Below the pieces are notes generated by a model. That model was not told where the DNA came from. It worked only from the letters and a program-made list of their open reading frames with translations, and made no database searches. A program made the position numbers and the translations under genes. Shown here in pieces: positions 26,685 to 63,680 of a stretch of 64,000 nt of DNA (within the stretch, counting starts at the first letter, position 1; the number at the start of each line of letters is the position of its first letter). The DNA is from a virus. The DNA lies in IMG/VR virus record IMGVR_UViG_3300036816_000007, positions 1,839 to 65,838 of that record; one strand, given 5' to 3'.

Positions 26685-26985
26685 TCCGCAATGCATAATC
26701 GTAACGATCCCGTTTAATCACGGATATGCACGGACATGTGCACAAAATCCCGTATACGGTGCAATAGTCCGCTCCGCAAACCCGCGCCACGCCTACGTTT
26801 ATTTACGCTGCATAAACGCGCCTTATACATCGCATATGCATTTCCAGTTATTAACGCGTACAACCCGCGCCGTTATGCGGATTATGCCCGTTAGTAGCTG
26901 GAAGGTTATACGGTCATTTCCCGTACCCTTCCGCGCTGTTTATAATGCCGATATACAGCCGAAAATAGGCGTTATGCATAAACCG
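26685..26985. repeat. dispersed TATGC(A)-type motif cluster in the TerS-TerL gap
   Basis: Instances: AATGCATAA, ATATGCAC, CTGCATAAAC, ATATGCAT, TTATGCGG, TTATGCCC and TTATGCATAAAC. There is no credible ORF in this region. Confidence 0.5.
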
Positions 26986-28348: not shown

Positions 28349-28460
28349 TCACTGCGTTCCTAGCTCCATCGCCTGGCGGCTCTGGAACATATAATTGATT
28401 ACGCGTTATACCTTTACCTTAATGATCCCGCGAGGTTTAGTTTGCGAAGCAAAATCAACC
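28349..28460 (-). promoter_or_regulatory. conserved non-coding element, copy A (candidate structured leader RNA or regulatory site)
   Basis: It shares three blocks at identical spacing with 61990..62101. The core is a 34-nt block with one mismatch (28426-28459), which forms a hairpin with a compensatory base change. Confidence 0.6.
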
Positions 28461-28576: not shown

Positions 28577-28627
28577 AACTATGCAATATTTGATAGGTAA
28601 AACGCTCTAACTATGCAATATTTGATA
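28577..28627. repeat. two perfect 19-bp direct repeats AACTATGCAATATTTGATA, 32 bp apart (iteron/operator-like)
   Basis: The copies are at 28577-28595 and 28609-28627, starting 6 nt past the stop of 28634..29512. Confidence 0.8.
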
Positions 28628-31330: not shown

Positions 31331-31346
31331 CTCAACCATCTCCTTT

Positions 31347-31427
31347 GTCCCGTTTAACGTACCACTTATAAACACAGTATATTATGTCCCGTTTAACGTG
31401 TCAATACATTTTGGCACTTTTAACGTG
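31347..31427. promoter_or_regulatory. three operator-like repeats (GTCCCGTTTAACGT x2 and CTTTTAACGTG)
   Basis: The copies are at 31347-31360, 31386-31399 and 31418-31427. The second lies in the spacer of the minus-strand promoter. The third lies over the -35 position of the XRE promoter. Confidence 0.65.
31376..31404 (-). promoter_or_regulatory. near-consensus sigma-A promoter TTGACA-N17-TATACT
   Basis: The minus strand reads TTGACACGTTAAACGGGACATAATATACT. Confidence 0.7.
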
Positions 31428-31468: not shown

Positions 31469-31693
31469 ATGTCCACGTATAAAGTCCGCCTCAAGCTCGA
31501 TGAGTTATTGAAAGAGCGCAACATAGGCGATCGCGAATTCGGCCGCTTAACCGGAATACGCCGCACGTCTGTCGGAGAGATGCGCGCTAACAAGACGTTG
31601 CGGCTTCCGCTTGACAATCTCGCTAAAATATGCGAAGTCCTCAGCGTAGAGATAACGGATGTACTCGAGCTAGAAAAAGAGCCGCGCGATTAA
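31469..31693 (+). CDS. XRE-family HTH regulator
   Basis: The HTH pattern is LKERNIGDREFGRLTGIRRTSVGEMRANK. The SD is AGGAGGTG, and a TATACT -10 lies at 31441-31446. The gene is divergent from the cassette promoter. Confidence 0.75.
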   Translation: MSTYKVRLKLDELLKERNIGDREFGRLTGIRRTSVGEMRANKTLRLPLDNLAKICEVLSVEITDVLELEKEPRD

Positions 31694-32424
31694 GCTGCGG
31701 CCTTTTCTTCGTATAGGGGCGGAGTAACTTCCGTAACTACTTCGATTTCATTGACCGCACCCATCTCGTTAATCCAACGCTTGCCAATACCGACGCAGTT
31801 AACGAAAGGCTCCGTAAGTTCGCCGCCGTTTTCGTAGAGGTTATACGTTTTGACTGCGCTAGGCTCCGTATCACGTATATACTGCGCCTGTCGTGCCTCA
31901 TTGCGGATCTTAGCGCCTTGATCTACGCGCCAATGTTCGTAACTACTACGCTTACGTTTCGTCGGCCTACGGTAGTCCTTACCGTCCACTCCGGTTGATT
32001 GTGCGGCTGACTCAGACGTCTCACGGTCACGGCGGAGGCCTAGCTGCCGTTCGGACATAAACGGATATTCCGTATGTGACACTTTGTACGGATTCGGGTC
32101 CGTAATCTCTTCATATAGCGCGAGATCCGTTAAGCGATCCATTAGCGCGGAATCTGCAGGCGTCATGGCCGGACGATCACCGGGGCATCCTTTCGCTTCC
32201 CATTCGCTGATCTTACGATGGTTAAACTCGCCATGCTCCGCGTAATAATCGCGTTGAATCGCCGCAATGACGTACATACGCGTTTCTCTGTCGCGTAGGT
32301 CGTGCGTCTTGCCTCCGAAATCAAACGGAATAGGCGGCGCGCCTTCCGCCTTAAACTGCGTCTCCATCGCGCTCTCCAACGTAGTAACCAATTGCTCCGT
32401 AATCTCGCGGTAAGTTGTCGTCAT
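31690..32424 (-). CDS. hypothetical protein
   Basis: 244 aa. The start overlaps the stop of the sigma-r4-like gene (ATGA). Confidence 0.55.
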   Translation of the reverse strand: MTTTYREITEQLVTTLESAMETQFKAEGAPPIPFDFGGKTHDLRDRETRMYVIAAIQRDYYAEHGEFNHRKISEWEAKGCPGDRPAMTPADSALMDRLTDLALYEEITDPNPYKVSHTEYPFMSERQLGLRRDRETSESAAQSTGVDGKDYRRPTKRKRSSYEHWRVDQGAKIRNEARQAQYIRDTEPSAVKTYNLYENGGELTEPFVNCVGIGKRWINEMGAVNEIEVVTEVTPPLYEEKAAA

Positions 32425-32828
32425 TAAGCCGCCTCCAATTCGATATTTTCCGTATACTCAACGCTAACCTCTCCGTATTCCCAGCGCTTATAGACCTCCG
32501 CCATTTTCTCCGCTGCTGCTTCGATTAATTGCGTAACGGCTTCGCGAGATACGCCCATCTGACGCGCTGCCTCCGCCTGTGTAACGTCAAATCCGTATAC
32601 GAACGCAATGGCTTCCGTTTGCCTATCGGTGAGGGAGGCGGAGCTTATTGCGCTATGCAGATCAACGAGGATGTCACACGCGGCATAATCCCCGCGGAAT
32701 CGTGCCGAGCTAATCCGGTGGCGGTCGCGTAATAGCGCCTTAACTCCGGCCGCGTCATTGAGCGAGTATTTAACGGAATAGCTGCGCGAACCCTTTTCGA
32801 TATCCACTTTAACGTGTCCCATACGCAA
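32424..32828 (-). CDS. sigma-70 region-4-like transcription regulator (ArpU/RinA-like late activator candidate)
   Basis: The sequence LTDRQTEAIAFVYGFDVTQAEAARQMGVSREAVTQLIEAAAEKM fits a region-4 HTH. Confidence 0.55.
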   Translation of the reverse strand: MRMGHVKVDIEKGSRSYSVKYSLNDAAGVKALLRDRHRISSARFRGDYAACDILVDLHSAISSASLTDRQTEAIAFVYGFDVTQAEAARQMGVSREAVTQLIEAAAEKMAEVYKRWEYGEVSVEYTENIELEAA

Positions 32829-38093: not shown

Positions 38094-38313
38094 TCGTCCA
38101 CTCCTTGCGTTTCGGCTTACCGTCGTGGACCATCCGCTGGAACATAAACTCGCGGAACAGTTCGCGCAATTTCTTGGCGGTGAGGTAACGTTCTAGGAAC
38201 CATACGTATAAATGTACGATCCCTGCGCCAGCGAGTAGTAATAGCGCGATTAATCCGGCGACGCCTAGTGCAATAATTGCGTGATATGCGAAGCCTTGAG
38301 TTAGTGGGTTCAT
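38086..38313 (-). CDS. small membrane protein
   Basis: TM segment AIIALGVAGLIALLLLAGAGIVHLYVWFL. Confidence 0.55.
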   Translation of the reverse strand: MNPLTQGFAYHAIIALGVAGLIALLLLAGAGIVHLYVWFLERYLTAKKLRELFREFMFQRMVHDGKPKRKEWTND

Positions 38314-40354: not shown

Positions 40355-40387
40355 GTGGGCGGTGCGTGGGCGGTGCGTGGGCGCTGT
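40355..40387. repeat. three tandem 11-bp repeats GTGGGCGGTGC in the 5' leader of 39421..40332
   Basis: The plus strand reads gtgggcggtgc gtgggcggtgc gtgggcgctgt. Confidence 0.85.
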
Positions 40388-40415: not shown

Positions 40416-40456
40416 CTTATACTTAGATTGACAATCTCCTACCTCCATTCGCACAC
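40416..40456 (-). promoter_or_regulatory. conserved 41-bp promoter-like element, copy 3
   Basis: The minus strand reads GTGTGCGAA-N12-GATTGTCAATCTAAGTATAAG. It lies between a terminator and the next gene. Confidence 0.6.
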
Positions 40457-40474
40457 TTTTCCGTAAATAAATTT

Positions 40475-40507
40475 AAAAAAAAACGGAGCAGCCCGCAGGC
40501 CCTCCGT
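40475..40507 (-). terminator. rho-independent terminator after nrdF
   Basis: The minus strand reads ACGGAGGGCCTGCGGGCTGCTCCGT followed by T9. Confidence 0.75.
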
Positions 40508-40518
40508 TAGTGTCCGTT

Positions 40519-41484
40519 TTATACCGCGAAATCCGCGTCAGTAAGCGGTACTATATTGACCGCCTTCTGATAACCGTTACCCTTTTTCGAAAAGAAATCA
40601 TGTATCTTCGTCGCGGTATTAATTCCGTTAAGTACGATTGGATTGATATCCTCGTCAGGAAAATGCGTAGGCCGTCCGAGGTTCATAAGCGCACGGTTAA
40701 AGTTGTAGCGCAGGAATGGCAACACGTCCTCCTCAAGTCCGATCGGAGCGTATAACTCAACGGTATAGCCCGCCTCATTATCGTAGAGTCTACGCAATAA
40801 CGACGCCACCTCACGGTCGAGCTCCGCTTGTGTTTCCGAAGGTAATTCCGCATATAGTTCGCGCGCCAACGTTCCGACGTACTGTCCGTGTACCGCCTCA
40901 TCGCGCATAATCAAGTCGATAATCTCGCCGCTGGCCGTCATCTTACCGCGTCCTGCGAGTAATAGCGGATAGTAAAAGCCGGAATAGAACAGCGCGGATT
41001 CCAAGAATACGGACGCAACCATCGCCATGTATAAGCGCTCGGGTGACGTGATTGAGCGGTAATATCCGCTGATGATTTCGCCTTTGCGTCGTAAGAACGG
41101 ATTAGATGCGGTCCACTCGAATACGCGGTCGGATTCTTCCGTTGATACGAGCGTTGCGAAGATTGCGCTATAGGACTTGGCGTGGATATGCTCCATCATA
41201 CCCATAAACGCGAGGACCGCCTTTTTCTGCGCGGATTCTACGTGTTGCATAATGAGCGGCATTCCTTCTGCTCCCTGCACTGTGTCTAGGAACGTAAGCC
41301 CTCCGAGCACCATCTTATATACGTCGCGCTCAACGTCGCTTAACGCCAACCACGCCATCTTATCGTCATCTAGCGGGATTTCATGTTCGCGCCAAATCTG
41401 CATAAAGTTTTGATCAAGGAACTCCTCGGAATAGTCATCATCTGGGCGGTTCCAGTTTACGGATTTAAGTACGGTTGTTGTCAT
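40519..41484 (-). CDS. nrdF: ribonucleotide reductase class Ib beta subunit
   Basis: 321 aa of the ferritin-like R2 type, located downstream of nrdE. Confidence 0.85.
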   Translation of the reverse strand: MTTTVLKSVNWNRPDDDYSEEFLDQNFMQIWREHEIPLDDDKMAWLALSDVERDVYKMVLGGLTFLDTVQGAEGMPLIMQHVESAQKKAVLAFMGMMEHIHAKSYSAIFATLVSTEESDRVFEWTASNPFLRRKGEIISGYYRSITSPERLYMAMVASVFLESALFYSGFYYPLLLAGRGKMTASGEIIDLIMRDEAVHGQYVGTLARELYAELPSETQAELDREVASLLRRLYDNEAGYTVELYAPIGLEEDVLPFLRYNFNRALMNLGRPTHFPDEDINPIVLNGINTATKIHDFFSKKGNGYQKAVNIVPLTDADFAV

Positions 41485-41503: not shown

Positions 41504-43600
41504 TTAGACAGCGCAAGATGTGCATTCGGCTACGGACAGCAGTTTGTTACGTGTATAGTACAGCGACTTTAGTCCGAGTTTGTGTGCGTACAGATAATGG
41601 CGGACAAGTTCGTTTGTTGGCGTTTTGCTGTCTACGTAAAGGATCGTCGATATCCCTTGGTCAACGTGGCGCTGAATTGTCGCAACCATTTCGAGAATCT
41701 TACGCTGATCCATATTGAACGCGCTGGTATACGAAATCATGTTATCACGCGCCAGGAACGGAGCCGGATAATACGTCGTAGAGTTTCCGTACGTGCGCGT
41801 CTCCATTACGTCAGAGATCGGAAGCACCGAGCTCGTTGCGTTCTGTACGTACGAAATGCTTTGCGTAGGTGCGATCGCAAGTCTATACGCGTGCCACAAT
41901 CCGTACTGTTTGACGGCTGCGGCCAAACGTTCCCAATCGTCAGGTCCCGGCAGTTCGATATCCGCGGCTGCGAACAAATCCGCTACCTTTTCGAATTTAG
42001 GACGGAAGTCATTTTCGATATATTGCGTAAAGTACGAGCCATCCGCGTAATCCGAACGGTCAAATCCGTAGAACGTGCCTCCGCGCTCCTGAGCGATCTG
42101 CATCGAACGCTCAATCGAGTAATAGTTAATCGCGGCGAAGAATGCGTCGGCAAACTCGCGGCCAACTTCGGACTGATACGATATGCGATTCTTCATCAGA
42201 TACCCGTGCAGGTTCATTGCGCCGAGTCCTACGCTATGCATCAAATCGTTAGCCTTACGGACGCCGGGCGCATTGGCAATCGCTGTCATATCGGAAACGG
42301 CGGTAAGCGAATCCATTGCGGAATGAACGGCGCGGCGAAGGTCTCCGGATTCCATTGCGGTAACGATGTTGAGTGATGCGAGATTACACGAGATATCGAG
42401 GCCGATTTCGTCCGGTTGTCCGTAGTCGTTGATAATATTAGTTTCCATCAACTGGAAAATTTCAGTGCAGAGGTTTGACATCTTCACCTGACCGACGCCT
42501 TTCAGCGCATGACCTTCGTTCGCGTTCTCCTTGAACATGAGATACGGATATCCCGATTCGAGCTGCGTTGTCGCAATCTTCGTCAGCATGTCACGCGCAC
42601 TTAACTCACGTTTCTTAACAGTCGGATTCGAGACCAACTCGTCATACATTACGCTAATATCCATATCGTCGAGGTGCGTTCCGTACGCTTTGTACACGGT
42701 GTATGGTGCGAATACGTAGTACGGTTCGTTAGTCTCCGCTAGCTCAATAAACTTCGCCGGTACGATAAGTCCGATCGATAACGTTTTGAGGCGCGACCGT
42801 TCATCCGCATTAATCTTCTTCGCGTCGAGTAGTTCCATCACATCCCATCCGAAGATGTTGTAATAGACAGCGCCGCTACCTTTCCGTTGCCCCATTTGAT
42901 CCGCGTATGAGAACGCCATTTCGAGTTGTTTGGCGACCGGAAGAATACCTTTCGCTACGCCTTCCTCTTCCTTAATCGCTTCGCCCCGTCCGCGCAGCTT
43001 CGATAAGTTCAGCGCAACGCCTCCGCCAATCTTCGAAAGCTGCATCGCGGTATTATGTGCGTGTCCGATCGCGTTAAGACTGTCGTCAAGCTCCGTTAGG
43101 AAGCACGATACCATTTCGCCGCGACGCGCTTTACCAGCGTTGAGAAACGTAGGCGTAGCAGGCTGAACTCCGTTAACATAGCCCCATAGTAGCTCGCGCG
43201 CCATCTCGTAATTACCCTGCGCCAGATATAACGCAGTGATTGCGTATCGCTCTTCCGGAGATTCCAGATACGTTTTCTTATCGCGAGTCTTAAGCGCATA
43301 GTCTGTATAGTATTTGAACGCGGCCATATACGAAGCGAATCGCAGGCCAGCATCGTTAGCCATTCGGTGGATCTCCGTTATCTGCTCCGGTGTATATTGC
43401 GCCAATACTTCCGGATAGTAATATCCGTTATCGACCATGTATTGAACGCGAGCCATTGCGGAGTCAAAACGCATCTTGTTATCGCGGATGAAGCGCATGA
43501 ACTCCTCGACGGCCTCCGTATCCTTTTCGAGCTGGTAGAATCCGTCCTTCATTACGGTAACTTCGTTATTGAGTTCGATGTAGTTATAAGTACTAGACAA
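41504..43600 (-). CDS. nrdE: ribonucleotide reductase class Ib alpha subunit
   Basis: 698 aa. It has the active-site motif NLCTEI and the C-terminal CTSCAV pair. No intein-sized insertion is present. Confidence 0.9.
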   Translation of the reverse strand: MSSTYNYIELNNEVTVMKDGFYQLEKDTEAVEEFMRFIRDNKMRFDSAMARVQYMVDNGYYYPEVLAQYTPEQITEIHRMANDAGLRFASYMAAFKYYTDYALKTRDKKTYLESPEERYAITALYLAQGNYEMARELLWGYVNGVQPATPTFLNAGKARRGEMVSCFLTELDDSLNAIGHAHNTAMQLSKIGGGVALNLSKLRGRGEAIKEEEGVAKGILPVAKQLEMAFSYADQMGQRKGSGAVYYNIFGWDVMELLDAKKINADERSRLKTLSIGLIVPAKFIELAETNEPYYVFAPYTVYKAYGTHLDDMDISVMYDELVSNPTVKKRELSARDMLTKIATTQLESGYPYLMFKENANEGHALKGVGQVKMSNLCTEIFQLMETNIINDYGQPDEIGLDISCNLASLNIVTAMESGDLRRAVHSAMDSLTAVSDMTAIANAPGVRKANDLMHSVGLGAMNLHGYLMKNRISYQSEVGREFADAFFAAINYYSIERSMQIAQERGGTFYGFDRSDYADGSYFTQYIENDFRPKFEKVADLFAAADIELPGPDDWERLAAAVKQYGLWHAYRLAIAPTQSISYVQNATSSVLPISDVMETRTYGNSTTYYPAPFLARDNMISYTSAFNMDQRKILEMVATIQRHVDQGISTILYVDSKTPTNELVRHYLYAHKLGLKSLYYTRNKLLSVAECTSCAV

Positions 43601-47281: not shown

Positions 47282-50113
47282 TTACGCAGCCTCCTTCGAT
47301 TTTGGACGTCCGTTTTCGAAATCCCATGCATCCGGACGAATCTCTTCCATCCAGCGTGGTTCGATTACTGTATCGCAGTCAAGCGGGCAGGCAAACGTTG
47401 CGGTATTCGTCATGATATCGGTATACAACGCGACCGTCTCTTCCGTAATCTGATCGGTAGGAGCCGCGTGTTTCTGCTCATCGTGAAGGGTCAGCGTAAA
47501 TTCCCACCCGCGAGCTACTGTCAGTTCGTAATAGCTTCGGATCATACATAGCTTGAGTACGTTCGCGCCGCTACCTTGAATTTCGTGATTGAACGCTGCT
47601 CTTTCGTCGCGTCCTGTTAATCTGATGAGTTGCCAGAACTCGTCGCGCAATCTTTTTAACCTACCGGCTTTTTTAGCGAGATATGGGTCGTCCTTGCCCG
47701 TAATGCCCACAAGTTGCATCAACGATTTAAGACGCTGCCAGTTCTTGCGATATTCCGGAAACCTCCGTTTCTGTCCCCACAACGTCGCCGTCCATCCGTA
47801 CTTGCGGAGATGTTCGAATGACGCGTTGACCATCGTACTGAAACCCGGAAGGATCTCGTCGAATTTCCCGTACGCACTCTTCGCCTGTTCCGGCGTTACC
47901 CCGCGCTTGACCGCAGTCTTAACGAACTGATCCTCAGCTTGACCGTAACCTTTCGCAAGGAACATATCTTTCGTTAGCTTACGGTATGGAACCGCCGTCA
48001 ACCCGTTCTTATACGCCTTTTCGAAACATAGATCGCGGTCGACTTCGAACATGATTGACGCGAACTCTACGTAAGGGTCGAGTCCTCTACGGTACATGTC
48101 CGCGAATATCTCATCGCCATGTTCGACGGCCATTTTATGCGCTTGGAGGCGCGGCTCGATCGAGGATAAGTCGCTGCCGAGAAACGTATGTCCTGGCGGC
48201 GGCTTAAACGTCATACGGACACGTTCGCCTTCCTTTGTTCGAGCTGGTATATTTTGTAAGTTGGTCCCCTTTGCTACGGATTTCTCCGCGCATTCAACGA
48301 GCTTCCGCATCGTATCGAGATAGTTTTCGTCGGTTACCGGACCTGACCGGATGTCATTCGGCTTCCCGCTATATCCTTTCGAGGAGTAACGTCCGGTCGA
48401 AACCATATCGAGCTGCGTATGCAATCGCCCGTCTACGTCGAGAGCCTTCGGTATTTTGTCTACGTAAGTGTTCAGCAGCTTTTCGTACGCGGACACGTTT
48501 GCCAACGGTTTGAGCGCTTCCTCTTCCTCGTAGTAACGTTCGAGAACGTCCTTGGATACCGCGCGCTCTTTCTTCTTGTCCTTAACGATTTGCTTCGTAC
48601 GGTCTTCAATTCCGAGATGATCGTAAATTAAATACCGCAGATGATTATCGTTTGTGAACGAGAACTCCGTTACGTTTAATGGCGCGTGCTCATCGTCGGC
48701 TGGCGCTAAATCCTCCGCCTGTAGTTGCGCAAGTCTCTCGACGGCGCTCGTATATTTCTTGAGCGACGTTTTACCGGCGGATTCACATTCCGCGATTATT
48801 ACGCGTTGCTTTGCCTGCGCTTCTTCATTCCGCGCAATTCTACGGCGCTGTTTATCGATCCAATCCGTTACCTTCGCGGAGTATAATGCGCGGTCCATCT
48901 TGCGTAAGAACTCCGAATCAGTTACGCCATAAGCTTCGATAACATCCGCCTGGGCTTGCGCTAGTTTCGGACGGAGTTCATCGCCAAGCGCCTGCAGATC
49001 GTCGAGATCAATTACGAAGCCCGTGCGCTCGATATTAACGTTGACCTCCGATAAATATTGCGTAATCTCGAAGAAGGACATCGCCAAGTTATCCGTTGCG
49101 ACAATGTTATCGATCTGCCAGCGCGTCAACCACCAGCCTTTGAGTACGTCCCATATCGCGTAGATTCCGACGACTTCGATCGGATGAAGCATCGGTGACT
49201 CCTTCGAGAAAAGATCCTCAAAGGTTGTATCCGGAGCCTCTACGCCGATAATCGATTTATACTTCGTTATGAGCGGCTTCAAAGCGTAAGTGTCTTCGTT
49301 GTCATTAAGCGTTCTTTGCGCAGCTACGGAGTCATATCGAATACCCTGCGGCTCTAGCCCGTCATTAAGCAACATCGCTAAGTCAAACTCCGCGTTATGA
49401 AACGATTTAATTTGCGACGGCAACGACATGAACTTTGCGATAGCTCCGAGCGCCTTTGACCGCGTGCATTGCTTCTCGCCCGTCAGATGTCCGTATGCTA
49501 CGTAATATCCTTCGTTGAGTAGCGGAAGCCATACGGAGTAGCCGCCGGTCAAGTCGAGCATCTTGTCGAGTCCGGATGTTTCCGTATCCCATACGGTAAG
49601 TGATTCCGCGTCTGGAATATCGATACCACGTTCGGCTAGCTTCCGTTTAATCAACGTGTCATTGAAGAGCACGAAGACATTACGGAACCACTCGTCATCC
49701 TTCTGCAGACGCACTTCCTCACGTAATCTCGCGATCATCTTCGGTAACTCCGCGTCATCCGTAATAATGTGGAAGTTATCCGGCTTGGACCGCAGTGTCT
49801 CCGCTACCTTATCCGCGCGCTCATCCGTCTGCTTTTGCCGTTGTAGTTGTTCAGCAGCGCGGATTACGTCTTCCTTCGTTACTTGGCCGCCGGAGGTACG
49901 GAGATTCGGACGATTTCCTGTTTCGCCCGATAATCCTTCGACTAGCTCACGTTGCTTATCCGATAGCGACATCCGCAGTACGCGTTCGATCGCCTCTTCG
50001 TCCGTCTCCTGCGCAGCCTTCTTGCGTTTAGCCGCGTCTGCCACACGTTCCGCCGCTCCGTCATCCGCTGGCGGCCGCAAGTTTAACGTTAATTTTGGCG
50101 CGATATGCGTCAC
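47282..50113 (-). CDS. polA: family A DNA polymerase with a 3'-5' exonuclease domain
   Basis: Exo motif VWDTETSGL, motif A GSDLSSIEPRL, motif B-like RKLTKDMFLAKGYG and motif C LTLHDE. Confidence 0.85.
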   Translation of the reverse strand: MTHIAPKLTLNLRPPADDGAAERVADAAKRKKAAQETDEEAIERVLRMSLSDKQRELVEGLSGETGNRPNLRTSGGQVTKEDVIRAAEQLQRQKQTDERADKVAETLRSKPDNFHIITDDAELPKMIARLREEVRLQKDDEWFRNVFVLFNDTLIKRKLAERGIDIPDAESLTVWDTETSGLDKMLDLTGGYSVWLPLLNEGYYVAYGHLTGEKQCTRSKALGAIAKFMSLPSQIKSFHNAEFDLAMLLNDGLEPQGIRYDSVAAQRTLNDNEDTYALKPLITKYKSIIGVEAPDTTFEDLFSKESPMLHPIEVVGIYAIWDVLKGWWLTRWQIDNIVATDNLAMSFFEITQYLSEVNVNIERTGFVIDLDDLQALGDELRPKLAQAQADVIEAYGVTDSEFLRKMDRALYSAKVTDWIDKQRRRIARNEEAQAKQRVIIAECESAGKTSLKKYTSAVERLAQLQAEDLAPADDEHAPLNVTEFSFTNDNHLRYLIYDHLGIEDRTKQIVKDKKKERAVSKDVLERYYEEEEALKPLANVSAYEKLLNTYVDKIPKALDVDGRLHTQLDMVSTGRYSSKGYSGKPNDIRSGPVTDENYLDTMRKLVECAEKSVAKGTNLQNIPARTKEGERVRMTFKPPPGHTFLGSDLSSIEPRLQAHKMAVEHGDEIFADMYRRGLDPYVEFASIMFEVDRDLCFEKAYKNGLTAVPYRKLTKDMFLAKGYGQAEDQFVKTAVKRGVTPEQAKSAYGKFDEILPGFSTMVNASFEHLRKYGWTATLWGQKRRFPEYRKNWQRLKSLMQLVGITGKDDPYLAKKAGRLKRLRDEFWQLIRLTGRDERAAFNHEIQGSGANVLKLCMIRSYYELTVARGWEFTLTLHDEQKHAAPTDQITEETVALYTDIMTNTATFACPLDCDTVIEPRWMEEIRPDAWDFENGRPKSKEAA

Positions 50114-53103: not shown

Positions 53104-53640
53104 TCAAATTACAGCGGCATAACTTTCGGCCGCCTTCAACACATCGCGTCTAACGCGGTTTATATCGCGTTCAACCTCTGTTATCCGCATAGTCAGCGCG
53201 TTAACTCTCGCATGGCACGCGTTACGCTTCGCCTCCGATCGCGCACCTAATGCCGATGCTCGTAATTCGCAGACTTCCGTTTCCATCCGCGTACGTAATT
53301 CGAGGAGCTTGCGTTCTTCCTGTAGGGCGCGCCGCTTGTGCTTGCGCAGCTCCTTATCCGCCAGCCTTTCGATGACCCCGCGCCACTCTTTTTGGACGCT
53401 CGCTTCCCGCACGGTGATTACCGCGTTATCCGCAATGGCTACGAAGATAACGACTTTGCCTGACGTATATGCGCGGCGCATCTTGCCGGAGTCATCCGGG
53501 ATACATCCGATAAATGACGCGGCATCGAGTTTCTGCGCAAGCCATTCGGTGATTTGTACGTCGCTGCCGCGGACATTAAACCGTTCACGGGCGCGCTTAA
53601 TTGCGTGCGAAGTTGCGGACCATCTCAGCGGAGTTTTCAC
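53104..53640 (-). CDS. hypothetical coiled-coil protein
   Basis: 178 aa track ORF. Confidence 0.55.
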   Translation of the reverse strand: MKTPLRWSATSHAIKRARERFNVRGSDVQITEWLAQKLDAASFIGCIPDDSGKMRRAYTSGKVVIFVAIADNAVITVREASVQKEWRGVIERLADKELRKHKRRALQEERKLLELRTRMETEVCELRASALGARSEAKRNACHARVNALTMRITEVERDINRVRRDVLKAAESYAAVI

Positions 53641-53831
53641 GCAATCACCCGTCCTCTCCGCAAAGTGCGCGCATCAATATAATCCGCGGAGTCTTCGTAC
53701 TCTGCGGCTGCACCGTTGTACCAAACGTCAGGGTAGCGGCGAGATTGCGGGAGAGAAATATTAAGAAAACGTGAAACTTCCGTGTTAGACGAACGTAAAT
53801 TATTAGCAAGGGCGCGTTTCAAGGCGGCCAC
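53637..53831 (-). CDS. hypothetical protein
   Basis: 64 aa with a TTG start after GGAGGTG. Confidence 0.45.
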   Translation of the reverse strand: MAALKRALANNLRSSNTEVSRFLNISLPQSRRYPDVWYNGAAAEYEDSADYIDARTLRRGRVIA

Positions 53832-53975
53832 CTCCGGGTATAATATAGTTAGATAGCGTTGACAAGCGTTATCAACCGTGGTAACATGCTAATTGTGAGT
53901 TATACAAGTTACCAATGATTTACAACATACATAATGTATCTGGATTGTTTAATTGTTAAGAAAGTATGATATACT

Positions 53976-54030: not shown

Positions 54031-54657
54031 TTAAACAGCTAGGTATTCGTTAACATCTCCGAAACGATTAGCGTCGTATCCGCGAGATAATTTTCGAAGC
54101 TTGCGTTTAACAAACTCGTGATGCATTCCTAGCGCTTTAGCGAGCGCCGTGATGGAATCGTGTTGCGGAAACTGCGATACAATTAGCGTTGTATCGTTGT
54201 CGACCTTAGCTGGGTCAATCAGGGAGACGATCAGTTGGCGCTGGTCGTCTTCTTTTTTGCGTAATTGGCTTAAGACATCTTCTTCTAAGTTGTAGTTATC
54301 CACGACGTCGGATGTTGGCGCATCCTCGTCATGATTTGTAATATCTATAGTTAGCGCGTTCCTTTTCCGGTATGACTTAGCACTTTTTATAAAATTTATT
54401 GTGGCGTTTTTTAATGCAGTGGACATCGCTTTTGTGAAGTCCAGCACGTCGGGCTCCCTACTTAGCTTAAGTATGACTGCGTTGAAAACTCCATCCGCAT
54501 CACTCTCATCTCCCCAACCACTTCGGACTAACCTTCCCCGATTAACTTTGTCGAAGATGTGCTTTGCCTCGTGGTACAGTTCGCTGAAGGAATCATCACT
54601 GGGATTTAGTTTGTAAGCAATCGCCAGTCTATTTAGTTTCGTTATGTTCATTCTCAT
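54031..54657 (-). CDS. sigma-70-family-like factor (regions 2 and 4)
   Basis: Region-2-like FSELYHEAKHIFDKV...DADGVFNAVILKL and a C-terminal HTH ITALAKALGMHHEFVKRKLRKL. By eye the segment is AT-rich. Confidence 0.5.
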   Translation of the reverse strand: MRMNITKLNRLAIAYKLNPSDDSFSELYHEAKHIFDKVNRGRLVRSGWGDESDADGVFNAVILKLSREPDVLDFTKAMSTALKNATINFIKSAKSYRKRNALTIDITNHDEDAPTSDVVDNYNLEEDVLSQLRKKEDDQRQLIVSLIDPAKVDNDTTLIVSQFPQHDSITALAKALGMHHEFVKRKLRKLSRGYDANRFGDVNEYLAV

Positions 54658-54670
54658 TCTCCTCTCGGGC

Positions 54671-54711
54671 CTTATACTTAAATTGACAACCTGCTATCCT
54701 CGTTCGCACAC
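54671..54711 (-). promoter_or_regulatory. conserved 41-bp promoter-like element, copy 2
   Basis: The minus strand reads GTGTGCGAA-N12-GGTTGTCAATTTAAGTATAAG. It ends 13 nt before the sigma-like start codon region. Confidence 0.6.
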
Positions 54712-54727
54712 TTTTTGAAGAAAAATA

Positions 54728-54736
54728 TGTTAAAAT
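54728..54736 (+). promoter_or_regulatory. extended -10 (TGTTAAAAT) for the XRE gene at 54777
   Basis: A TGn plus TAAAAT element lies ~40 nt upstream of the ATG. Confidence 0.45.
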
Positions 54737-54776
54737 GTTTTTGTACCATCTGTAACACGTTGGAGGCATAGTAGTT

Positions 54777-55010
54777 ATGGGACTCTACCCCGGAGATTGC
54801 CGCCTCCAATACTTACTCGATCGTGCAGGTATGTCTCAAGCTGAACTGTCACGGCGTACAGGTCTTAGTCCTCAGTATATAAACGGACTAATTAATGAAC
54901 GCTGGAAAAAAGGAATAATGAAGTTAGACAAGGCCAGGCTTATTTGTGCTGTCCTAAAGATTGATAATCCCTTTGACCTTTATGAGTGGAGAGCTGAGAA
55001 GCCTGACTGA
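54777..55010 (+). CDS. XRE-family HTH regulator
   Basis: The HTH pattern is LLDRAGMSQAELSRRTGLSPQYINGLINE. The SD is GGAGG. The gene is divergent from the sigma-like gene. Confidence 0.75.
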   Translation: MGLYPGDCRLQYLLDRAGMSQAELSRRTGLSPQYINGLINERWKKGIMKLDKARLICAVLKIDNPFDLYEWRAEKPD

Positions 55011-55093: not shown

Positions 55094-56095
55094 TTACATT
55101 ATTTGACGATACGTGTCGATACTATGTTGCGCCTTTACGAATATATTTCGTCTAACAGCGCCAGCAACCGTATTCCTCACCGACTCCTCATCGCCGACCT
55201 CGTTCGCATCCTTCGCGCCATTCGACCACCTCACGTCATACAACTCGCAGTATCCACGCATCTTAGCCGCAATCTCTTCGCGTAGCTTCTCGCCGGCCGC
55301 GTCATTATCCGTTCCCAGAACGAGCTCACTTACGGGAGACATCCGCAGCATCTCCGCCTGGTTATCCGTAAACGTAGATCCGCCGACCGCAACCGCAGGT
55401 ATTCCGCAGCTCCACAGATATAACGCGTCCGTTTCGGATTCAACGATAACAACTCGTTCGATTTTCCGCGCATAAACGAGGTGTATCCCGTATATCATGT
55501 TACGGACAGGTGCGCCGCCCTTCGCATACCAGAACGCCTTACTCCATGTCGCCCGCCACTTTGCGTTGATTATCGTACCGTCTGGCGCGTGCCATGGCAT
55601 TACTACCGCGTTCTTGTCGTTATCGTAACCGCAGTTAAATGCGCGCTGCACTTCCGGATCGATTCCGCGTCCAGTTAGATACGGGACCGCTACGGACTTA
55701 TACGCGCTCACATCGATCGGTTGCGGCTTAGGTGGCGGACCCGGCGGTACGAGTTTAATCCGGAGTTTAGGCGGACCATCTTCGCTCACATCGCCGGTCG
55801 TCAACTCTTCGCGCGCCTCTTCGTATGTTATGTTGCGAAGGAACGCGTAAAGCTTAACGGGACCTCCGCGAGCCCATTCCGGGTCATTAGCGCCCGAGTC
55901 ACGCCAGCAACCAAAGTCGGCCGAATCTGGATCGATAATTACGCTGAATGATGGCGTCTTATCTGCTCGGTTGCCAAACGGTGATGAAGCGTTTAACCGA
56001 CCGCGAGTATTCGGTTGGACATTGCGCCAGTCGTACGCGCCGATTGCGGCTAAGAACATGTCAACGTTTATAACATTAGTCAAGGTTCTGTTCAC
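55094..56095 (-). CDS. dnaG: DnaG-like primase (TOPRIM) with a degenerate zinc-binding motif
   Basis: TOPRIM motifs VVIVESETDAL and LGTDNDAAGEK. The N-terminal SSPFGNRADKTPSF...FGCWRDSG lacks most CHC2 ligands. Confidence 0.75.
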   Translation of the reverse strand: MNRTLTNVINVDMFLAAIGAYDWRNVQPNTRGRLNASSPFGNRADKTPSFSVIIDPDSADFGCWRDSGANDPEWARGGPVKLYAFLRNITYEEAREELTTGDVSEDGPPKLRIKLVPPGPPPKPQPIDVSAYKSVAVPYLTGRGIDPEVQRAFNCGYDNDKNAVVMPWHAPDGTIINAKWRATWSKAFWYAKGGAPVRNMIYGIHLVYARKIERVVIVESETDALYLWSCGIPAVAVGGSTFTDNQAEMLRMSPVSELVLGTDNDAAGEKLREEIAAKMRGYCELYDVRWSNGAKDANEVGDEESVRNTVAGAVRRNIFVKAQHSIDTYRQIM

Positions 56096-56147: not shown

Positions 56148-56200
56148 ATATTCAAAATGAATATCGGCCTGAAACCTATACTAATCTTCGATTTGAATAT
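56148..56200. promoter_or_regulatory. operator-like sites: palindrome ATATTCA-AAA-TGAATAT plus a third TGAATAT half-site
   Basis: The palindrome is at 56148-56164 and the half-site at 56194-56200, abutting the -35 of the primase promoter. Confidence 0.6.
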
Positions 56201-56206
56201 TGTCAA
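56178..56206 (-). promoter_or_regulatory. sigma-A promoter TTGACA-N17-TAGTAT for the primase operon
   Basis: The minus strand reads TTGACAATATTCAAATCGAAGATTAGTAT. A plus-strand TATACT overlaps the same bases. Confidence 0.65.
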
Positions 56207-56441: not shown

Positions 56442-57800
56442 TCAAAAACCGCTCACGCTCGCAAACTGTTCCGCCTGCACCTGCGTATCCAACTCGCGCA
56501 CCACTCCGTAATTCGGCAGGTATACGATTTCAACGCGGGTGTCTTCGCCGCCATTACGTCCCTTCTTGATCCATACCGCTCCGCGCCCTTCCTTATTCAA
56601 CGTATCTACGCCGAGTAGGTTCGTAGCGTCTTCGAGTATGGCCTTCGTCTTCTTAACTTCCGCACGCTTAGGCGCAACTAATTCGCGCTCACCTTCCGCG
56701 TTCTCTTCGTCTTTAACCTCGTCCGCCTGCGTAACAACGTGTACAACGCTCTTTAACCGTCCGGCCATCCGCCGCAGCTTCTTCGATGTTTCCGCAACGT
56801 CACCGCCAGCAGTCCGCGAGGTGTTCGCTTCGAAATCCATCAAGTATATCGGATCGACTACGACAACGTCCGCATCCACTTCGATAATGTCCGATTCCAG
56901 ATTCGTTATGCCGCGGTTGATAAATCCTTCGCTATCTGTTGCGCGGAGTAGTATCTTGCCCGGAATGATTTCGTTAAGCGCCGCGACAAACTGTTCAAGT
57001 CCGCGTTCGTACGCGTCATCCAATTTCCCCATCAGCATCCGCTTGTTGTCGAATCCGACCGTATAATCCACGCCGTCAATTCGCTCAACTGTACCGCTGA
57101 CTCTCGCGGAGATAGACGAGTAAGCACGCGCCATCCATTCGAACGTGCTCATTTCGAGTATCCACAGTAGAACGACCGCGCCTTGGAACGCAGATTCAAG
57201 CGCCTCCTCCATTACGATAACGGATTTACCGCGGCCTGACCGCCCGTACCATGCGTACATGTTTCCGGAAAGGTAGCCGCCGATCGCTTCGTTAACAGTT
57301 TCGAATTTGCTCCGCCAAATCTTAAACGAGGTGCCGGACTTACGTGCGCGGTACTCTATAAGAAACTGTTCGCCCGATGTGGAAATATCCGTAATCTTCG
57401 GAACGCTTGTTCGTGTTTTAATCTTAATCTCATTGGTCCGCTCCGTCAACCTATTAATGAAAGATTCTGTCGACATTTCGCCGAATTCTCGTTCCAGGTC
57501 CGGACTATTTAATAATGCGGCCAATTCGCGCTTACCTGTTGCATCCTTTAGCTCGCCCGCTAAGTACTCGAACGAATCCGTAACCTCTGGTATATGTGTT
57601 ATGTTTCTCACGTTTGCGGAGAACGTTGCGTAAGATGGCGCAGCTCCGCCATTTTCTGACGCGTATTTAACAATGAAATCGTAAGCCTCGCGTTCGGCCG
57701 GCGTTGGGAAGTCCGATCGCTTTACGTTATACTTCGCGAGGGCCTGCGTTGAGCCTTCGTCAATTAACTTAGATAGCAACTGTTGACCTGTAACCGCCAT
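56442..57800 (-). CDS. dnaB: replicative DNA helicase (DnaB family)
   Basis: Walker A YGRSGRGKSV and Walker B VVVVDPIYLM. 452 aa, with no intein-sized insertion. Confidence 0.85.
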   Translation of the reverse strand: MAVTGQQLLSKLIDEGSTQALAKYNVKRSDFPTPAEREAYDFIVKYASENGGAAPSYATFSANVRNITHIPEVTDSFEYLAGELKDATGKRELAALLNSPDLEREFGEMSTESFINRLTERTNEIKIKTRTSVPKITDISTSGEQFLIEYRARKSGTSFKIWRSKFETVNEAIGGYLSGNMYAWYGRSGRGKSVIVMEEALESAFQGAVVLLWILEMSTFEWMARAYSSISARVSGTVERIDGVDYTVGFDNKRMLMGKLDDAYERGLEQFVAALNEIIPGKILLRATDSEGFINRGITNLESDIIEVDADVVVVDPIYLMDFEANTSRTAGGDVAETSKKLRRMAGRLKSVVHVVTQADEVKDEENAEGERELVAPKRAEVKKTKAILEDATNLLGVDTLNKEGRGAVWIKKGRNGGEDTRVEIVYLPNYGVVRELDTQVQAEQFASVSGF

Positions 57801-59368: not shown

Positions 59369-59831
59369 CGGCGGACACCTCCGTATTAAGTTTCCGTACA
59401 TGTTCCCGCGCTCCTTGGATAACGTAATCCGTCCCGCTAGACAGCCCCGTTTGTTGAATCCTTCCGTCATCCGGCGCGGAGACTAGCGCCCTGAGCCAGC
59501 GGTGAGACTCCGTTACGTCATCGTATACGGGCGGCGTCGAATCCAGCGCGTCCTTTGCCGTCTGTGCGCAAGTGGACCCACGCATGTCAATTCCGCCGTA
59601 TGTCGCGATCTGAGCGAGTACCGCGCGTAACCGTTCAACCTCCGCCTCAGCCGCGATCGCCCTGCGCAATGCTTCCGACCAACCCTCATCAGCCTCCTCG
59701 AAATAATGCCGCGGACATCCCTCGTCTGGATAATCTGCTCGATAACCTCCGCCCTCATCGTAGTACACTCCGCGGACAGATTCGCATAGCGCAAGATCCG
59801 CGTGTAAATCCCGCTTAATTTCCGTTGTCAT
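59355..59831 (-). CDS. hypothetical protein
   Basis: Internal start MTTEIKRDL lies 8 nt after GGAGGTG. Confidence 0.5.
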   Translation of the reverse strand: MTTEIKRDLHADLALCESVRGVYYDEGGGYRADYPDEGCPRHYFEEADEGWSEALRRAIAAEAEVERLRAVLAQIATYGGIDMRGSTCAQTAKDALDSTPPVYDDVTESHRWLRALVSAPDDGRIQQTGLSSGTDYVIQGAREHVRKLNTEVSADATR

Positions 59832-61989: not shown

Positions 61990-62101
61990 TCACTTCGTTC
62001 ATACTCGCCGTCGCCTTTGGCTCCGTATCATCTACCGCGCGGATAAATATGTTCTTATCTAATTCGTCCCGCGAAGTTTAGTTTGCGAAGCAAAATCAAC
62101 T
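61990..62101 (-). promoter_or_regulatory. conserved non-coding element, copy B
   Basis: It has the same three blocks as 28349..28460 at identical spacing. The 34-nt core is at 62067-62100. Confidence 0.6.
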
Positions 62102-62243: not shown

Positions 62244-62663
62244 TTACCCACTCTCCAACGCCGCCGGCTCCGCATCAAATATCGCAAGCTGACTGATCGG
62301 CAGCACCGTATAGCGCGTATTCTGCCACGTCCCCTTCGGCGCTCTATCTTTTATTGCGCGGATAACTGGACGCCCATTCCAGCGGTACTCCGTAAGCCTG
62401 CGAACGTACTTATTCGCCGTCGTCCGGTTGACTCCGAGGAACCGCGCTATTTGCTCCTGCGTTGGATAACAGTTGCCGGCCGCATCCATAAACGAAGCGA
62501 TTACGCAAAGCGTCGTCCAGTTCTGTGCGCCCATGTCCGCAATGAGTCCGGCTTTGGCGGCGTCGACGTACATCTTAACGAAGATTCGCGTTTCAGTTGC
62601 GCCGGATGTGACGGAGTATTCCGTTTGGGATTCGACGCTGATGAGGCGTTGAGTTTCCGACAT
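62244..62663 (-). CDS. winged-helix DNA-binding protein (replication-organiser/regulator-like)
   Basis: The sequence CYPTQEQIARFLGVNRTTANKYVRRLTEYRW fits a wHTH. Confidence 0.55.
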   Translation of the reverse strand: MSETQRLISVESQTEYSVTSGATETRIFVKMYVDAAKAGLIADMGAQNWTTLCVIASFMDAAGNCYPTQEQIARFLGVNRTTANKYVRRLTEYRWNGRPVIRAIKDRAPKGTWQNTRYTVLPISQLAIFDAEPAALESG

Positions 62664-63593: not shown

Positions 63594-63635
63594 CTTTATA
63601 ATAAGATTGACAACCTCAACCGGATGTTCGCACAA
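63594..63635 (-). promoter_or_regulatory. conserved promoter-like element, copy 1
   Basis: The minus strand reads TTGTGCGAA-N12-GGTTGTCAATCTTATTATAAAG. It lies between a terminator and the gene start at 63571. Confidence 0.6.
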
Positions 63636-63642
63636 TTTACGC

Positions 63643-63680
63643 AAAAAAAAATAACGCACGCCTCCGAAGAGACATGCGTT
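63643..63680 (-). terminator. rho-independent terminator upstream of the early operon
   Basis: The minus strand reads AACGCA-N16-TGCGTT followed by A-T9. Confidence 0.6.

Follow-up and report, generated by a model that had tools for sequence, protein, structure and literature searches.

Phage- and plasmid-encoded alternative sigma factors with autoregulated promoters are a known kind of regulator, as illustrated by phage SPO1, by Xpf of PBSX and by SigN. In SPO1 (gp28, gp33/34) and PBSX (Xpf), a phage product replaces the host sigma factor and redirects RNA polymerase to promoters without a sigma-A consensus. The SPO1 factors serve the middle and late gene classes of a virulent phage, and Xpf serves the late operon of a defective prophage. 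Promoters of the extracytoplasmic function (ECF) sigma factors of Bacillus subtilis are laid out like that of sigma-W, TGAAAC-N16-CGTA. SigN (ZpdN) of B. subtilis pBS32 is the weakly ECF-like sigma factor of a mobile prophage-like element; it is autoactivated from its own promoter besides a sigma-A promoter, antisense promoters lie downstream of sigN, and its regulon comprises replication and nucleotide-metabolism genes of the element (PMC6751061, PMC10601692). Many of the mapped SigN promoters end in (T)AAG at the start site (PMC6751061, PMC10601692), and autoregulation is typical of ECF sigmas and SigN (PMC6751061). Here we examine a repeated intergenic element and the gene of a 208-amino-acid (aa) sigma-like protein in a 64-kb window that represents most of a 65.8-kb Paenibacillus phage contig (IMG/VR record IMGVR_UViG_3300036816_000007; all positions refer to the window). 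We propose that the element serves as the promoter recognised by the sigma-70-family (ECF-like) factor that the phage itself encodes, the product of 54031-54657; judging from sequence comparisons, we put the probability of this reading at roughly two in three.

Read on the minus strand, the element consists of an upstream block (an A-tract and GTGTGCGAA), a middle block that differs between phages (RTTGTCAAT in the window) and a downstream block, TATAAR. If the first two are taken as -35 and -10, the system resembles the group 4 ECF factors of Bacillus (sigma-W, sigma-M and sigma-X) in having sigma2 and sigma4 domains without region 3, a bipartite promoter with a spacer of 16-17 nucleotides (nt), a GT(C)/CGT-type -10 motif and a presumably autoregulatory copy before the sigma gene. 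It departs from them in its -35, which would be GTGTGCGRA where Bacillus ECF promoters have an AAC-containing motif, and in the addition of a universal TRTAAG block at the presumed start. Moreover, in the phages sigma2 and the -10 block vary from one phage to the next, whereas sigma4 and the -35 are fixed.

With SigN, the locus shares an element-borne, weakly ECF-like sigma, a copy of its own promoter, a sigma-A promoter, antisense promoters, and replication and nucleotide-metabolism targets. The (T)AAG at SigN start sites may be regarded as an interesting parallel to the phage TRTAAG, not as proof of kinship. The SigN consensus, ATTTACGTTT-N12/13-AGATATAA, differs from the phage motif, and the phage sigma gene, unlike the SigN system, is accompanied by a divergent Cro/CI-type helix-turn-helix (HTH) gene as potential partner regulator. 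A tblastn search with two family members gave no pBS32 match in a plasmid collection whose inclusion of pBS32 was not verified. SPO1 and PBSX have a different consensus. The units that the present element is predicted to serve are those of the early-left region, replication and nucleotide metabolism in temperate phages and phage-plasmids, and the sigma gene is probably autoregulated. Literature searches for the motif and for the related Bacillus phage Mgbh1 yielded no description of this promoter or sigma family, and the Mgbh1 genome paper mentions neither. Three features are unusual: a universal block at the presumed start site, a sigma2/-10 module that is exchangeable on a sigma4/-35 chassis that stays fixed, and, in some relatives, tandem copies with foreign specificity.

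Three copies in the window and their counterparts in related phages

The element, AAAnTGTGCGAAY-N10-AGRTTGTCAATYTWAKTATAAR, is present in three gapless copies on the minus strand (Table 1). Its core, TGTGCGAA-N13-TTGTCAAT, is exact at 40427-40455, 54682-54710 and 63606-63634 and occurs nowhere else on that strand; no other minus-strand site in the window comes within three mismatches of it, with 0.53 chance matches expected at this tolerance. The three-copy element reported in an initial annotation of this DNA is thus real. Some of its details had to be amended: the 1-nt indel between the copies disappears in the gapless alignment, the third copy spans 63595-63634 instead of 63594-63635, and the distance from TGTGCGAA to TTGTCAAT is 13 nt and not the 14 implied by N12 plus two purines. 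The downstream 20-mer RTTGTCAATYTWAKTATAAR is unique to the three sites (40416-40435, 54671-54690 and 63595-63614; 0.05 expected by chance), and the upstream part AAAKTGTGCGAAY is limited to them except for one match with a single mismatch at 38160-38172. We found no fourth copy within the window. A plus-strand match to the core at 59563-59591, with two mismatches and inside coding sequence, is probably due to chance.

All copies are intergenic and lie 5' of minus-strand genes, on the same strand as nearly all genes. Copy 1 (at 63.6 kb) and copy 3 (at 40.4 kb) are situated directly behind terminator-like hairpins with T-runs (63680-63653 and 40496-40483), as had been noted before. Copy 2 is separated by a 13-nt leader from the ATG of the sigma-like gene at 54657. 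Copy 3 directly follows the gene of the ribonucleotide reductase (RNR) small subunit and its terminator, and an 83-nt leader connects it to a gene for a 303-aa protein.

The leader of copy 3 contains an 11-nt tandem repeat, CGCCCACGCAC (about 2.6 units), at 40355-40383 (minus strand). In addition, the 11-mer GTATAAGGCGC of copy 3 recurs at 26818-26828 (minus strand) in the gap upstream of the packaging genes, with a weak TGTACGCG one base out of register. We did not count this site as a further copy because it has neither an upstream nor a middle block; it may mark the start site in promoters of a different class or have arisen by chance.

A megablast search with 6 kb around the site gave no match among GenBank phages, and the distant Bacillus phages were recovered by tblastn only. 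An exact motif scan of IMG/VR returned six single matches, all unrelated. The sigma-like protein has homologues in genomes of Paenibacillus, Brevibacillus and Neobacillus, in metagenome contigs (56-68 kb), in Bacillus phages such as Mgbh1 and in a circular phage-plasmid of 62.9 kb, with a syntenic order of helicase, primase, reverse HTH, sigma, SSB-like (single-stranded DNA-binding) and DNA polymerase genes. The promoter-sigma pair recurs in about 25 related phages, prophages and one phage-plasmid. Each of the 18 genome loci has (A)AAGTGTGCGRA 5' of the sigma orthologue, in most cases with T(A/G)TAAG after it; the gap between the two is strictly 26 nt, with a deviation of 1 nt in a few. A copy also precedes the orthologue in the other relatives with recovered upstream DNA, including Mgbh1 and the phage-plasmid NZ_CP062261. 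This consistent placement makes it probable that the sigma gene is autoregulated, as had been suggested on the basis of copy 2.

A motif search, which had been recommended as a check, was carried out in the window and its relatives. The strict pattern TGT[GA]C[GC]R-N26/27-TRTAA[GAC] gave 23 matches on the sigma strand of the loci versus none on the opposite strand, in what we estimate at roughly 480 kb of sequence with about 0.7 chance matches per strand. Several relatives carry additional copies at matching genomic places (three each in L021, L016, L024 and Mgbh1, two in L019). In the complete phage-plasmid NZ_CP062261, copies are found at the start of the early region (28.2-28.4 kb), 5' of sigma (37054) and directly after RNR beta (51242), which are the three positions occupied in the window.

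The blocks differ in how they are conserved. The upstream block (A-tract and GTGTGCGRA) and the downstream TRTAAG are both nearly universal, the latter often with RCGAAAA next to it. The middle block (positions ~20-33) is 85% identical between copies in one phage and 34% identical between phages, compared with 51% and 30% for the spacer beside it. Thus the window has RTTGTCAAT, L021 and L016 have GGCAACGTA, L019 and L025 have GTAGATAA, L024 has CTTTCTATATAG and the plasmid has GTACGTCTAGGTAT.

The copies are located at the boundaries of functional modules, and the element is long (~45-65 bp conserved), with RCGAAAA also somewhat conserved between phages. Such features could belong to a site that is no promoter at all: iterons or an origin, a partition or packaging site, a recombination linker between modules, or an RNA signal such as antitermination. 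We consider this quite improbable given the strict strand polarity with the genes (23 versus 0 matches), the position, which is invariably preceded by a terminator or gene end and followed by a ribosome-binding site, and the bipartite fixed-spacing layout that is typical of sigma promoters. Within the window, there is no dyad symmetry or iteron-like tandem arrangement of the element. An explanation at the RNA level was rejected, since the element matches no Rfam family and structure at the three copies does not exceed that of shuffled controls (z-scores +0.6, 0.0 and +1.3).

The probable -10 block and transcription start

All three copies contain TGTGCG-N17-GTCAAT, and most relatives have GTY/CGT motifs in the corresponding place. 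If TGTGCG is the -35, the GTC of GTCAAT lies 17 nt downstream, which fits the spacing of B. subtilis ECF promoters. A start 11-12 nt past this GTC would fall on T34/R35 of TRTAAG, a pyrimidine-purine step. The best reading would then be TGTGCG as -35, GTCAAT as -10 and TATAAR as the start region.

The initial annotation had instead assigned the -10 to TATAAR. This is unlikely for four reasons: TGTAAG takes its place in about half of the relatives, the hexamer ends in G or A in every copy, as many as 26 nt separate it from the upstream block (GTC/CGT is found at about 17 nt), and the Shine-Dalgarno (SD) sequence overlaps the block or follows 5-13 nt past it in L027, L024, L014, L023 and window copy 2. 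A housekeeping -10 would have A at position 2, where about half of the relatives have G, and T at position 6, which none of the copies has. No TTGACA-like -35 stands 17 nt upstream of TATAAR, where the sequence is not conserved between the copies (GGATAG, GGTAGG, GGTTGA), and a scan for the sigma-A consensus did not call the minus-strand copies, so that the earlier remark that these are not canonical sigma-A promoters holds.

A rival reading is that of a host sigma-A promoter that depends on an activator. TATAAR would then be the -10, an activator would bind GTGTGCGAA near -42 in the manner of class II activators, and TTGTCAAT would be a phage-specific operator; the sigma-like protein itself or another phage DNA-binding protein, for example the HTH_36 protein (62244-62663), might be the activator. 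TATAAG of the window copies does match TATAAT at five of six positions, the centre of GTGTGCGAA is one helical turn upstream of a normal -35, which is the classic class II position, and a phage-specific block between two universal ones has the look of an immunity operator. In L023, the ATG follows TATAAG after 7 nt, as would suit a leaderless transcript. We nevertheless regard this arrangement as unlikely. The TGTAAG, TGAAAG or CGTAAG of about half of the relatives would place G at -11 and -7, and sigma-A disfavours G at both positions of its -10. A start 7 nt downstream of the block would remove or abut the SD sequences of L027, L024, L014 and window copy 2. Furthermore, the middle block tracks the sigma2-like helix, and a different N-domain comes with a different middle block (see below), neither of which is predicted for the operator of a separate repressor. 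Finally, the protein has a two-domain sigma fold, more than an HTH.

The other strand offers a reading of its own, in which TTGACA-N17-GCACAC is a sigma-A-like promoter for antisense or divergent transcripts, for example of the HTH gene at 54777. The arithmetic given in the initial annotation (TTGACA, 17 nt, GCACA) is correct: a perfect TTGACA and exactly 17 nt are found in all three window copies, a simple scan calls TTGACA-18-CACAAT at 63607-63636, and copy 2 faces a plus-strand gene. However, this TTGACA is the reverse complement of the middle block, the phage-specific TTGTCAAT, and is not conserved; relatives carry GGCAACGTA, TGTAGATAA, GTACGTCTAGGTAT and others in its place. GCACAC/A is devoid of any -10 determinant, copies 1 and 3 have no plus-strand gene to serve, and the HTH gene has its own conserved extended -10, TGTTAAAAT. 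Because TTGACA is absent from the relatives and the HTH gene has a -10 of its own, we rejected the plus-strand reading, which seems scarcely credible.

The sigma-like protein and its covariation with the DNA

The 208-aa protein comprises an N-terminal sigma2-like domain (residues ~1-110), a low-confidence linker (~110-123) and a C-terminal sigma4-like HTH with the recognition helix HHEFVKRKLRK (residues 179-189). Its AlphaFold2 model, with a mean predicted local distance difference test score (pLDDT) of 82.5 and values above 93 in the N-domain, consists of two helical domains and a floppy linker. Almost all top Foldseek matches in the PDB are sigma factors (sigma32, SigL, SigH, SigE, SigW, sigmaS), with probabilities of up to 1.0 and a best E-value of 0.015. 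A profile of 48 homologues gave marginal PDB matches to the sigma2 domains of the ECF factors SigH and SigW (E = 0.18-0.7), and nine of the 48, those with a different N-domain, reach Pfam Sigma70_r2. A GD..DA.E.FD motif is located where ECF region 2.1/2.2 lies. These predictions support, although they do not prove, a divergent two-domain sigma-70/ECF-like factor.

The sequence halves evolve differently, the C-terminal one being almost invariant and the N-terminal one variable. In 20 phages, the recognition helix begins with G-x-HHE and the upstream block contains TGTGCG; one of these, with a K-to-N exchange further along the helix, has TGTGCC. A changed helix start is accompanied by a changed upstream block in five of five cases. 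NHTT (L016) and QRNT (the plasmid) are paired with TGTACGG at all three sites each, HPE with TGTGTGA (L036) and TGTGTCA (L033), and DHKR (L034) with CACCCGAA (CACCCG). To test the link between helix and block prospectively, L033, L034 and L036 were retrieved for this purpose; P0049, an NH variant, is not part of the count, as its 1-kb contig is without the upstream block. The middle block shows a corresponding relationship with the region-2.4-like helix. Four phages with a hydrophobic residue in this helix (AL.[ILV].R) share the middle block GG[CG]AAC[GA]TA, and the AL[KR]NAR class has GTY.A-type middle blocks. Relatives in which the N-domain is swapped for a canonical Sigma70_r2 domain keep the upstream block and have other middle blocks, including the classical ECF-type GTCGTA.

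Such covariation would be difficult to account for if the upstream block were not read by sigma4 and the middle block by sigma2. The earlier proposal of a dedicated recognition factor, either an activator or the sigma-like protein, is supported, with the latter as the likely factor, given that the upstream block co-varies with its C-terminal recognition helix.

In the mechanism that we propose, host RNA polymerase core with the phage sigma would recognise the three-part element, the C-terminal sigma4-like HTH reading the upstream block as -35 and the N-terminal sigma2-like domain reading RTTGTCAAT as -10, and transcription would start in or next to TATAAR. Three units would depend on it: the leftmost operon (from 63571), sigma with the downstream replication genes (from 54657) and the operon behind RNR (from 40332). 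As one copy would drive the sigma gene itself, the result would be a positive-feedback, self-amplifying switch. It would probably be primed by transcripts that read through from the sigma-A-type promoter at 56206 and yield the first sigma molecules, because we detected no minus-strand terminator between this promoter and the sigma gene. Two conserved features, the divergent HTH gene and an antisense sigma-A promoter, may keep the switch in check.

Several observations weigh against this interpretation. The Foldseek E-values are modest and the template modelling (TM) scores are 0.2-0.34; such low scores are expected for two flexibly linked domains and are not conclusive. The window protein does not reach the Pfam gathering thresholds of Sigma70_r2 or Sigma70_r4 and gives only a sub-threshold HTH_50 match (20.4 bits, cut-off 27), and searches of PHROGs and NCBIfam with it were empty. 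The covariation counts ignore phylogeny, and the link between sigma2 and the middle block comes from few lineages. The strongest downstream conservation, that of TRTAAG, falls on the presumed start, a region in which sigma-dependent promoters normally show no conservation, and we identified nothing that explains its universality. Lastly, the simple model does not account for tandem copies whose middle block fails to match the sigma of their own element (28335 and 51305 in the plasmid, 1966 in L014).

Tandem copies of foreign type, in which the upstream or middle block matches the sigma type of another phage, occur in NZ_CP062261 (L030/L031; 28335 and 51305), L014 (1966) and L024 (790). The plasmid's TGTGCGR...GGGAACATAT, for instance, is the type found 5' of the L014 sigma, so that this element has L014-type promoters without an L014-type sigma. 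A second sigma of the 208-aa family is not present in the plasmid, and a family hidden Markov model (HMM) revealed no paralogue in the window or in nine relatives; a second family sigma can therefore not explain the tandem heterologous sites. They may reflect cross-talk between co-resident elements.

The cognate sigma promoter could also be truly tripartite, an extension that we hold only tentatively: a fixed -35/sigma4 pair, a swappable -10/sigma2 module, and a third signal formed by TRTAAG and the A-rich RCGAAAA tail. TRTAAG might then be read by a conserved part of sigma, by the RNA polymerase core, or as the 5' end of the transcript. In the same scheme, tandem copies of foreign specificity would make an element responsive to the sigma that a related, co-resident phage supplies (cross-activation or eavesdropping).

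If the element is the promoter of the phage sigma, a function can be assigned, along with a defined regulon signal, to a gene that is widespread in temperate phages, prophages and phage-plasmids of Paenibacillus and Bacillus and is mostly labelled 'hypothetical'. A self-amplifying switch based on the phage sigma, with SigN-like logic, would then seem to control the lytic programme of such elements. The natural variants represent ready pairs of sigma4 helix and -35 block and of sigma2 helix and -10 block, which makes the recognition code directly testable, and such pairs might be turned into orthogonal sigma/promoter parts for use in Gram-positive hosts. In addition, the motif lends itself to annotating transcription units and to spotting related prophages.

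Two small genes that follow the sigma gene are conserved (53637-53831 and 53104-53640). No anti-sigma gene was identified, the two small genes not having been analysed for anti-sigma features. Relative L008 (1-222) encodes an extra 221-aa protein with weak Sigma70_r2/r4 matches about 10 kb upstream of its sigma orthologue; no counterpart was found in the window.

Gene context and further signals

From high to low coordinates, the minus strand encodes, after copy 1, the 302-aa protein, the HTH_36 protein, small genes and a DnaB-type helicase, followed by a sigma-A-type promoter and the primase. Next come the plus-strand Cro/CI-type HTH gene, copy 2, the sigma-like gene, DNA polymerase, the RNR genes, a terminator and copy 3. 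Nucleotide-metabolism and small genes follow, and finally packaging and structural genes. A query with the 302-aa protein for the contig beyond base 64000 retrieved only a 3.4-kb Logan contig.

Table 1. Position of the element, the sigma-like gene and their surroundings in the window
Feature	Position	Strand	Remarks
Predicted promoter, copy 1	63595-63638	-	AAATTGTGCGAAC-N10-AGGTTGTCAATCTTATTATAAA; upstream block 63627-63634, middle 63606-63614, start 63595-63600; leftmost operon as target
Predicted promoter, copy 2	54671-54714	-	upstream block 54703-54710, middle 54682-54690, start 54671-54676
Predicted promoter, copy 3	40416-40459	-	upstream block 40448-40455, middle 40427-40435, start 40416-40421
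Intrinsic-terminator-like hairpin and T-run	63653-63680	-	immediately upstream of copy 1
Intrinsic-terminator-like hairpin and T-run	40483-40496	-	ends RNR operon, immediately upstream of copy 3
Gene, 302 aa	62663-63571	-	first gene of leftmost operon
HTH_36 DNA-binding protein gene	62244-62663	-	second gene of leftmost operon
DnaB-type helicase gene	56442-57800	-	
Canonical sigma-A-type promoter	56178-56206	-	TTGACA-N17-TAGTAT; 5' of primase gene
Primase gene	55094-56095	-	
Cro/CI-type HTH gene, 77 aa	54777-55010	+	divergent from sigma gene; syntenic in all relatives
Extended -10 TGTTAAAAT	54728-54736	+	divergent promoter of HTH gene; TGnTAAAAT conserved at fixed distance in relatives
Sigma-70/ECF-like factor gene, 208 aa	54031-54657	-	
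Antisense sigma-A-type promoter	53859-53887	+	TTGACA-N17-TAACAT with TG; just downstream of sigma gene, points into it
DNA polymerase gene	47282-50113	-	
RNR gene	41504-43600	-	
RNR small-subunit gene	40519-41484	-	
Gene, 303 aa	39421-40332	-	follows leader of copy 3

The HTH gene 54777-55010 is a candidate repressor partner of the sigma switch. Its promoter has a -35 region that overlaps with the upstream block of copy 2. In the gap that separates sigma and HTH, a 38-nt stretch (54711-54745, minus strand), AACATTTTAACATATTTTTCTTCAAAAAG, which contains the extended -10 of the HTH gene, is near-identical in relatives with a sigma identity of only 53-65%, and it probably holds an operator. A conserved 24-mer of this intergenic region matched no viral contig besides the source contig.

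The strong antisense promoter downstream of the sigma gene is also aimed onward at the plus-strand HTH gene. Of 19 relatives, 17 have an equivalent promoter with a perfect TTGACA, and its spacer often includes a palindrome. It is accompanied in the window by an antisense terminator-like hairpin within the sigma open reading frame (54221-54254, plus strand), and such a hairpin is likewise found in L011 and L008.

The late genes are probably served by another regulator. This may be the 134-aa product of a second sigma-type gene, 32424-32828 (minus strand), which matches Pfam Sigma70_r4 above threshold (E = 1.7e-9). In plasmid NZ_CP062261, a 'sigma factor-like HTH' gene occupies the syntenic position.

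Further repeats were noticed on the minus strand. A second repeated intergenic element of 34 nt, GTTGATTTTGCTTCGCAAACTAAACYTCGCGGGA, occurs with one difference at two distant sites (28426-28459 and 62067-62100). A direct repeat, TATCAAATATTGCATAGTT, at 28577-28595 and 28609-28627, 32 nt apart in a 400-nt gap 5' of a 292-aa winged-helix gene, is a possible operator or iteron pair. At 31346-31404, a canonical sigma-A promoter (TTGACA-N17-TATACT) with two ACGTTAAACGGGACA boxes diverges from a plus-strand XRE-type HTH gene (31469-31693). This 31-kb module is the third combination of a plus-strand HTH gene and a divergent minus-strand promoter in the window, the others being at 54.7 and 56.2 kb.

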